DNA of 64,000 bases. Origin: Escherichia phage WPEC1. The translations under genes and the position numbers were made by a program. The stretch lies in the sequence record PV659873.1; one strand, written 5' to 3'. The notes beneath the pieces were generated by a model. That model was not told where the DNA came from and did no database searches. It saw only the letters and a program-made list of their open reading frames with translations. Below, in pieces: positions 3,370 to 4,748 of the stretch (positions are counted from its first letter, which is position 1; each line of letters begins with the position of its first letter).

Positions 3370-4023
3370 CTATACCAGACTTTGTAGGTATTTGTCAAGG
3401 GCTTCTTGATCGCCTTGACAAACATAGCAACGGAAGTCTTGAGCCGAAGGTTGTTTATTTTCATCCCAGTCCCAATAAACATTACCCTTATAACGTGAAC
3501 CAGGAAACTCAAAAGAGGCTGTATGTGTAATGTATCCTGGGCCACCAGTGAAATCACAGAATGAGAATTGGGGGTATGCCGCCTTTACTGCCTCAATAAA
3601 CCAAGCTTTACGATCTAAAGCTTCATTGATGCTATACGCATGTCTCTCCATTTCTTCCCACGTTTTCCAGACACTTCTTTCATCAGGAGAAAAGACAAGC
3701 CATTCTGGAAGGTATAGAGTGTCATAGTAATCATCATATTCGATCTCGGAGGCGCACGAAGCTGACTCCTCCAGTTTTGAGTAATCAAAAGCAGAATATA
3801 CCCACCAACCATCTTCCAGTAACGCTTTGATAGGGACGAAGCCTTTATCAGCATATTGATCGAATTGTTTGACACGGTGGCTTGTGCAGTCTTCAAACTC
3901 ACATTCTAAACGATATGCACCTTTTCGACGAGCCTCAAGACCGTGTGTACTGAAAATAACAACACTTCCTTCACCATCATTACGATCTACTTGATAAGCA
4001 ACCACTGGTTTTGAATTTGACAT
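3370..4023 (-). CDS. hypothetical protein
   Basis: 217-aa ORF, followed on minus strand by hairpin 3331-3357. Confidence 0.45.
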   Translation of the reverse strand: MSNSKPVVAYQVDRNDGEGSVVIFSTHGLEARRKGAYRLECEFEDCTSHRVKQFDQYADKGFVPIKALLEDGWWVYSAFDYSKLEESASCASEIEYDDYYDTLYLPEWLVFSPDERSVWKTWEEMERHAYSINEALDRKAWFIEAVKAAYPQFSFCDFTGGPGYITHTASFEFPGSRYKGNVYWDWDENKQPSAQDFRCYVCQGDQEALDKYLQSLV

Positions 4024-4748
4024 TATTTCTCCTTATCTAGAAGATTGTTAGACAAAAACACTGCACGAGCAAAACCACGTGCGGTTAGTGATCTAAGTTG
4101 TTTTGTTTTTGCACTAGCTCCACCTAAGCTTTTCCAACCCCAGAAGCAGCCTATATGATCTACTGGTTTCTTCACTGGTTGAACAAAACCATTGCCGTGC
4201 CAAATACAAGTTTTCTTTGTATACCCATCACGGGTAGGCATTTTAGGATGAAAGCTTCCTTCCTCTTCAAACAAATACCCACCATACTCATAAGGATCAA
4301 AGTAAAAATCGGGTTTACGCCATAAGGTTGAAAGTTTACCTACTGGGTTCTCAATCATCCAAGGAACATTATATTTGTTACCCAAAGCTTCCACTACACG
4401 AATATTAGCTAAAGCTTCATCCAATTCCTCTGTGCTGCGTTCGTGTTTGCTACCACTACCTGCTAACATAGTGCAAGGTGGAAATCCAAAAATAATATCG
4501 GGTTTAGGTATTCCATGATCTTCAGGGTTGAATGTAGAATCTATCCAGGCATTCACATAGGTTATGTTTGGGTGCTCCATCCTAACCTCGTATTTACCGT
4601 GATCCCCTTCATCAGCGTTTACACAAAAACACTTGTGACCTGCTTCGGCATAACGTAACACCATGATCCCAGATCCGTCAAACATAGACAAAACTGTTTT
4701 ACTCATTACCCCTCCATTCAAGACAAGCCATAACTTTACGCCAATCAC
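4023..4748 (-). CDS. cytosine-C5 methyltransferase-like protein (short; true start probably internal Met at about 4706)
   Basis: LSMFDGSGI (motif I FxGxG-like), GFPPCTMLAGSG (motif IV with PCT in place of PCQ), ENP (motif VI-like); only about 225 aa so a target-recognition region appears absent. Confidence 0.45.
   Translation of the reverse strand: MIGVKLWLVLNGGVMSKTVLSMFDGSGIMVLRYAEAGHKCFCVNADEGDHGKYEVRMEHPNITYVNAWIDSTFNPEDHGIPKPDIIFGFPPCTMLAGSGSKHERSTEELDEALANIRVVEALGNKYNVPWMIENPVGKLSTLWRKPDFYFDPYEYGGYLFEEEGSFHPKMPTRDGYTKKTCIWHGNGFVQPVKKPVDHIGCFWGWKSLGGASAKTKQLRSLTARGFARAVFLSNNLLDKEK

Follow-up and report, generated by a model that had tools for sequence, protein, structure and literature searches.

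A gene on the minus strand of Escherichia phage WPEC1, at positions 4023..4706 of the 64,000-nucleotide stretch of record PV659873.1 analysed here (the window), is likely to encode an active, compact, orphan DNA cytosine-C5 methyltransferase dependent on S-adenosylmethionine (AdoMet). For the window protein this activity is argued from its predicted fold, its conserved residues and a studied homologue, and we give about an even chance to the proposal that its target is the inner C of CCWGG. The identical gene already bears the label of a DNA methyltransferase in GenBank, and work on a homologue exists, so that it represents a known kind of enzyme, with little weight as a discovery; how so small an enzyme would recognise its site is a structural question.

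The protein would consist of a core of the DNMT/M.HhaI superfamily, seven-stranded and Rossmann-type, in which about 35 conserved residues replace the recognition domain. In the mechanism we propose, the FDGSG loop would bind AdoMet, the target cytosine would be flipped out, Cys78 of FPPCT would attack C6, Glu119 of ENP would protonate N3 and the methyl group would be transferred to C5, with the DNA held by Lys164/Lys165, the loop after Cys78 and residues 172-205. Expression of the enzyme is probably early, as part of a four-gene unit read from a host-type promoter, and its substrate would be replicating phage DNA. Methylation of CCWGG would protect against EcoRII-type restriction whether host Dcm is present or not, at the cost that methylation of multicopy single-stranded DNA (msDNA) may trip retron Ec86 (Eco1).

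The gene and the fold of its product

The longest open reading frame (ORF) at this place, 4023..4748 (-), runs to 241 amino acids from a GTG and is the span given in the initial annotation; the frame is real and its stop lies at 4023, but the 4748 end is only the mechanical limit of the ORF. Translation almost certainly begins at the ATG at 4706, because the first residues of homologues (MSK...) coincide with it in the alignment, a Shine-Dalgarno sequence read directly from the DNA, GGAGGGG at 4709..4715 (-), lies 2 nt 5' of it within the end of the upstream gene, and the GenBank record of phage Schickermooser gives at the equivalent place a 684-bp gene, gp059, described as 'identical to phAPEC8_0075, conserved domain Dcm'. 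The gene is accordingly 684 bp long, with a product of 227 amino acids plus a stop codon, close to the approximately 225 first estimated. Judged by its sequence, the window is that of a Phapecoctavirus, a phAPEC8-like coliphage; over bases 3000-8000 it matches the Escherichia phages WPEC4, WPEC2 and WPEC6 at 100% identity and many Phapecoctavirus genomes (Stephanstirmvirinae) at 99% or more.

Comparison with other phages indicates that this is no chance ORF, since the gene is found at 100% DNA identity in several phage genomes, its product matches 870 protein clusters at 90% identity (E<=1e-3), and a homologue is present in 1,487 of 50,697 phage records (tblastn), mostly phages of Escherichia, Klebsiella and Salmonella from several families. 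The identical gene is labelled 'DNA methyltransferase' in many GenBank phages, and 965 clusters at 50% identity are matched as well. Residues 1-225 align with positions 13-223 of the 247 in the profile of PHROG 757 ('DNA methyltransferase'; E=1.8e-84), and nearly all full-length members of this family have 200-260 amino acids. The protein had been described as truncated; family lengths and the conservation of the short segment in the recognition place speak for no deletion, and on these alignments it is a full-length member of a compact single-domain phage family.

An AlphaFold2 model of the protein, built on 41 sequences, was predicted with a pLDDT (predicted local distance difference test) of 89.9 and a pTM (predicted template modelling score) of 0.89. 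It is a class I Rossmann methyltransferase fold with seven strands and no second domain, and the nearest solved structures are C5 methyltransferases: DNMT3B (score 13.8, 190 residues aligned), 8yf3, a phage DNA C5-carboxymethyltransferase (12.2), 3g7u (12.1), DNMT3A (11.7) and M.HhaI (11.4). Fold and recognisable motifs I, IV and VI thus agree with the first assignment to the C5 methyltransferases, and the motifs FDGSG, FPPCT and ENP all lie where they had been placed. The features of the protein are as follows.

4668..4682, minus strand: motif I, FDGSG (residues 9-13), the putative AdoMet-binding glycine loop after strand 1
residues 74-85, minus strand: GFPPCTMLAGSG, which contains motif IV and has Cys78 at nucleotides 4473-4475
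4470..4484, minus strand: motif IV, FPPCT (residues 75-79), with the presumed catalytic nucleophile Cys78
4434..4469, minus strand: presumed flexible catalytic loop MLAGSGSKHERS (residues 80-91), with the invariant Gly85 (77/77)
4344..4352, minus strand: motif VI, ENP (residues 119-121), at the end of strand 5, with Glu119 presumed to protonate cytosine N3
4209..4223, minus strand: YTKKT (residues 162-166), leading into strand 7 in the place of motif VIII (QxRxR), with Lys for Arg
4095..4193, minus strand: short conserved segment (residues 172-204) standing where a target-recognition domain would be, presumed to contact DNA
4047..4094, minus strand: C-terminal RSLTARGFARAVFLSN (residues 205-220), which looks like motifs IX and X run together, with a helix at 210-219

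Conservation was counted in 77 diverse relatives with 31-57% identity to the window protein and, separately, in 41 close relatives. Across the diverse set C78, G85, E119, P121, P138, Y162, W169 and P177 are invariant, and F75, P76, N120, K164, T166, R205, P209, G211 and A215 nearly so; all ten family-invariant residues are present in the window protein. Motif I is invariant in the close relatives and looser farther out (D10 in 66/77, G13 in 63/77). In motif IV, Cys78 is found in all 77 sequences, with F75 in 70, P76 in 74 and P77 in 59, and FPPC aligns with PPCQ of M.HaeIII and DNMT2. The glutamine of PCQ is not found in the window protein, which has Thr79, and the PCT reported in place of PCQ is indeed there; it is the family consensus, however, and no local substitution, because the residue after Cys78 is Thr in 69 of the 77 relatives (Asp in 5, Glu in 2, Gln in 1). 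A Gln after Pro-Cys is not universal in the C5 methyltransferase superfamily, DNMT3 having Asn, and Thr79 therefore does not exclude membership. The role given to the loop after the catalytic Cys is that of M.HhaI-type enzymes, and residues 81-90 have a pLDDT of 62 in the model, as expected for a mobile catalytic loop.

Farther along the protein, motif VI is equally well kept (E119 and P121 in 77/77, N120 in 74/77), and its ENP is placed by hhalign on ENV of E. coli Dcm. The segment YTKKT (Y162 in 77/77, K164 and T166 in 76/77 each) stands at the spacing expected for motif VIII and is its putative counterpart. The motif-VIII strand (166-171) and the C-terminal helix (210-219) lie only about 38 residues apart. 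The absence of a target-recognition domain had been suggested; the model has no separate domain, but this conserved stretch remains, with W169, P177, an LGG motif and TK conserved, and the model gives residues 172-204 as coil for the most part, interrupted by two short helices. Subfamilies differ in the sequence type of this stretch. The C-terminal RSLTARGFARAVFLSN resembles by eye R-x-L-T-x-R-E-x-A-R followed by G-N-A-V, and R205 (76/77), P209 (71/77, Ala in the window protein), G211 (75/77) and A215 (74/77) are conserved in it.

Among known enzymes, the catalytic domains of DNMT3A and DNMT3B are the closest solved structures, with only 14-20% identity to the window protein; DNMT3 domains have about 280 amino acids, recognise CpG and act as DNMT3L-assisted tetramers with regulatory domains, and nothing suggests a close evolutionary tie. 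Enzymes of the M.HhaI/M.HaeIII type differ in having two domains, a recognition domain of at least 80 amino acids, PCQ, ENV and QxRxR. E. coli Dcm and M.EcoRII share the superfamily chemistry with the window protein and probably the product, C-5mC-WGG (5mC, 5-methylcytosine); E. coli Dcm differs in its 472 amino acids, in scoring on PF00145 and PF18284, and in overlapping vsr. 'Dcm-like', applied to the window protein, is in our reading a functional label and not a statement of orthology, because the profile comparison with E. coli Dcm by hhalign aligns motifs IV-VI only, over 66 columns, with E=0.064 and a probability of 0.9%. A protein search with E. coli Dcm returned close orthologues only (at least 74% identity) and was not used.

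A studied homologue and the candidate target site

The phage KarlJaspers (Bas06, MZ501090) of the BASEL collection carries gp55, a 711-bp gene for a 236-residue 'Dcm-like C5 cytosine methyltransferase' which is 50% identical to the window protein over its full length (E=1e-71). Its residues C82, E128, K175 and K176 align with C78, E119, K164 and K165 of the window protein, and its gene length and these residues match exactly what was described for Dcm from phage K42, a strain of KarlJaspers in which this enzyme triggers retron Ec86 (bioRxiv 10.1101/2023.08.16.553469). In that work phages escaping the retron had lost dcm, and expression of K42 Dcm, which works alone from a plasmid, was toxic only with the retron present. 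The enzyme raised 5mC on retron msDNA as measured by liquid chromatography-mass spectrometry, an effect that was gone in a C82A/E128A/K175A/K176A mutant, and changing CCTGG in the msDNA to AATGG, ACTGG or CATGG abolished defence (bioRxiv 10.1101/2023.08.16.553469). The study was also published as Cell Rep 2024;43:114857, and the statements given here follow the preprint. The K42/KarlJaspers protein shares with the window protein FPPCT, ENP, the KK pair, RSLTPRGFARAVF, a similar size and its nature as a phage-borne orphan gene. The two differ in the segment before LGG, which is of another type (CFWGWKS in K42/KarlJaspers compared with DNPGWAK in the window protein), in gene neighbourhood, and in the phage that carries them, a 51-kb Drexlerviridae siphovirus as against a Phapecoctavirus myovirus of about 150 kb.

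The window contains CCWGG 57 times where 55 are expected, and GATC 282 times where 226 are expected, so that neither site is avoided. Other sites are scarce: GTAC occurs 41 times against 200-226 expected, GGCC, CCGG and GCGC are at 0.3-0.5 of expectation, and 26 of the 64 six-base palindromes are absent. CTSAG is also rare (3 observed, 46-88 expected).

A comparative count was made in 60 Drexlerviridae loci anchored on the helicase that adjoins the methyltransferase gene there, in stretches of 11-22 kb rather than whole genomes, with a homologue called intact when all ten conserved residues were present and with the CCWGG ratio taken against mononucleotide expectation. In the 46 loci with an intact homologue this ratio was 1.27-2.53 (median 1.90). 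Six loci were purged of CCWGG (ratio <=0.12), and none of them had an intact gene in the examined stretch. Three of these (L039, L053, L056) had no homologue in the 11-22 kb covered; the other three (L065, L067, L068), with 0-1 sites against 20-29 expected, had broken copies:

L065, about 8365-8949: last approximately 33 residues lost, including the RSLTARGFARAVFLSN segment
L067, about 11806-12586: split across three reading frames
L068, about 12549-13373: insert of about 46 amino acids resembling an inverted duplication

That genomes purged of CCWGG do not keep the gene intact fits CCWGG as the relevant site.

Two further observations on site content may be recorded here. In the loci L009-L064 with intact genes CCWGG stands at about twice mononucleotide expectation (the median of 1.90 above), and phage T1, which has no such gene, is at 1.16. 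CCSGG (CCCGG/CCGGG) is absent from the window, where 35 are expected, and occurs twice against 53 expected in KarlJaspers (L008+L005) and 65 times against 60 in T1; its ratio in methyltransferase-carrying phages is bimodal, near 0 or near 1. A correspondence between CCSGG absence and the methyltransferase clade was considered and dropped, as the absence does not track the clade at 70% identity, and it possibly comes from pressure by restriction enzymes cutting CCSGG or CCNGG.

Beyond the window protein itself, we tentatively suggest, as a proposal that is doubtful as a whole, that these enzymes of about 230 amino acids are a distinct minimal C5 methyltransferase architecture, which would read the 5-bp site CCWGG without a canonical recognition domain, perhaps as a DNMT3-like dimer and by means of some 35 residues together with the catalytic loop alone, and would have reached the specificity of host Dcm independently; they would be common in phages yet invisible to PF00145, with the presence, decay and site content of the family shaped jointly by EcoRII-type restriction and retron Eco1. 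Surveys of phage methyltransferases by hidden Markov models under-count the PHROG 757 family, which is missed by PF00145. Phapecoctavirus phages with the gene may resist CCWGG-cutting restriction but be sensitive in hosts with retron Eco1, a point that bears on host range in phage therapy.

Contrary evidence and alternative activities

Several results weigh against an active C5 methyltransferase that targets CCWGG. On the side of the assignment, PF00145, which the initial annotation had named as the model to search, scored 11.6 bits (E=0.18), below its cut-off of 22 and formally a failed check, and among the 77 diverse relatives only 2 reached E<0.01. NCBIfam gave no match for the window protein. 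Sequence and profile searches of the PDB were likewise insignificant: the best match of the single-sequence search was M.HaeIII at E=0.08, the narrow profile matched nothing, and the broad profile gave E=0.14-0.39 in the N-terminal third only, these weak matches spanning only motifs I-IV of M.HaeIII and DNMT2. On the side of the target, the CCWGG motif of K42 Dcm was taken over from E. coli Dcm rather than mapped, and the work used a dcm+ host (bioRxiv 10.1101/2023.08.16.553469); our literature search for a mapped methylation motif in the PHROG 757 family found nothing beyond the retron work. The site-count association treats related lineages as independent, shared ancestry being ignored; phage T1 has no homologue and yet holds 83 CCWGG against 72 expected; of the 69 intact genes in distant, non-enteric relatives, 12 lie in CCWGG-poor DNA; and in the BASEL study the restriction resistance of Drexlerviridae was not linked in any simple way to their methyltransferase genes (PMC8594841).

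We read the PF00145 miss as a blind spot, a limit in the sensitivity of the Pfam model, because the fold matches C5 methyltransferases and a 50%-identical homologue is reported to make 5mC. Target specificity is probably not uniform across the PHROG 757 family, given the 12 distant intact genes in CCWGG-poor DNA.

These 12 genes, together with the variation in the recognition-segment sequence type within the family, also accord with an active DNA C5 methyltransferase whose target is something other than CCWGG, namely a relaxed site such as CCNGG or a motif of 2-3 bases. The shortness of the stretch between the motif-VIII strand and the C-terminal helix would suit such a site, and the closest structural relatives, DNMT3A/B, read a dinucleotide. 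Phage C5 methyltransferases with GpC dinucleotide specificity have been described (PMC8256090), and expression of K42 Dcm was described as probably toxic (bioRxiv 10.1101/2023.08.16.553469). The absence of CCSGG from the window could be added, if methylated CCSGG were harmful, for instance through McrA-type enzymes; this absence, however, does not follow the methyltransferase clade and is also seen in L039 and L054, where no homologue was found. Against a relaxed site, moreover, AATGG, ACTGG and CATGG each abolished retron triggering, so that both cytosines matter, and the CCWGG-purged Drexlerviridae never had an intact gene. We consider this alternative unlikely, though a serious one.

Another substrate or another transferred group is far less probable still. 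The protein might act on RNA or transfer RNA, as DNMT2 does, on free nucleotides, or with a carboxymethyl group from carboxy-S-adenosylmethionine (Cx-SAM), as the phage enzyme in structure 8yf3 does; the homologue with 50% identity, which also has PCT, is reported to raise 5mC in DNA, and no CmoA-like Cx-SAM synthase turned up among the scanned ORFs of the window, in which no search was aimed at one. Known enzymes for C5 modification at the nucleotide level have the thymidylate-synthase fold and not that of the C5 methyltransferases, which counts against this alternative, and the earlier suggestion of an action on nucleotides, or of a C5-modifying enzyme of another type, found no support. It is hardly credible that the protein is catalytically dead and, like DNMT3L, serves only to bind DNA or a partner, or that the gene is decaying. 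The score below the Pfam threshold, the broken copies in other phages and Asn30, where strand 2 ends in an acidic residue in most of the family (Asp in 73/77 relatives), would suit such a reading, but this Asn is also found in the active K42/KarlJaspers enzyme, many isolates carry an identical, intact ORF with the full set of invariant residues, and the gene is translationally coupled in its operon.

The operon and other genes of the window

An active cytosine-C5 methyltransferase, as we favour, would be the third product of a four-gene unit with the following features.

6119-6102, minus strand: terminator directly before the promoter at 6096-6068, with a terminator annotated in Schickermooser too
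6068..6096, minus strand: tentative sigma-70-like promoter from a consensus scan (TTGACA, 17 nt, TAAACT, with TG)
5096-6037, minus strand: first gene of the unit, a DUF7277 and DUF7275 protein (DUF7275 E=7.5e-76)
4699-5112, minus strand: small protein of about 131-137 amino acids, its gene overlapping the methyltransferase gene by 8 nt
3370..4023, minus strand: downstream gene for a 217-residue protein of PHROG 8514 (function not annotated), its ATG overlapping the methyltransferase stop by 1 nt
3330..3354, minus strand: intrinsic-terminator-like hairpin and T run that closes the unit, with a terminator annotated at the equivalent place in Schickermooser

The promoter at 6096-6068 probably drives the unit, an assignment we hold tentatively, and sigma-70-like matches in the region are not above shuffled expectation. 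None of the three operon partners has relatives near the methyltransferase gene in the Drexlerviridae phages PaulSarasin or KarlJaspers. Because of this, and because K42 Dcm works alone, the methyltransferase would appear to be self-sufficient, and a recognition subunit supplied in trans by an operon neighbour was considered and dropped on the same grounds. The downstream 217-residue protein is probably no functional partner. No nuclease domains were detected in the neighbours and no restriction enzyme is adjacent. Two genes downstream of the unit, at 2026-2841 (-), lies a Sir2-family protein (Pfam E=1.9e-22, PHROG 2162).

The initial annotation had joined the methyltransferase to an N6-adenine methyltransferase at 48501-49295 and a glycosyltransferase cluster as a hint of layered DNA modification. 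Genes resembling both do exist. The ORF at 48501-49295 (-), 264 amino acids and beside the DNA polymerase gene, has a motif I (VEPSAGEGAF) and NPPF of the kind typical for N6-adenine methyltransferases, and a weak match to PHROG 799 ('DNA methyltransferase'); it belongs to PHROG 5172 (function not annotated) and has no Pfam match. Two adjoining ORFs at 51898-53797 (-), by the primase-helicase gene, encode glycosyltransferase-like proteins of about 315 amino acids with weak group-1 matches (E=1.7e-5 and 1.2e-4), but they are about 47 kb from the methyltransferase.

With the candidate genes 44-50 kb away, and with the three operon partners matching only DUF7275 and DUF7277 and, within the sensitivity of Pfam, no TET/JBP or other enzyme family, layered hypermodification is not supported. 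Phage modules of C5 methyltransferase, TET dioxygenase and glycosyltransferase genes resemble the window in combining a phage C5 methyltransferase with glycosyltransferase-like genes elsewhere in the genome; in those modules the methyltransferases are recognised by Pfam, prefer GpC and have a TET/JBP dioxygenase no more than five genes away (PMC8256090), whereas in the window the operon partners lack such domains by Pfam and the glycosyltransferase-like genes are distant. Vequintavirinae and their relatives, a description extended to the cluster of Phapecoctavirus, were found to be exceptionally sensitive to restriction-modification systems (PMC8594841).

Elsewhere on the minus strand of the window, a nucleotide-metabolism block at 10428-15573 holds the small and large subunits of ribonucleotide reductase and a long ThyX-type thymidylate synthase (332 amino acids); equally far from its methyltransferase gene, phage Schickermooser appears to have different genes, among them gp076, a second small 'DNA methyltransferase'. 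A tellurite-resistance-like set at 56364-62541 consists of TerD, a vWA TerF-like protein and TelA, after which comes a protein bearing a CapR homology domain.

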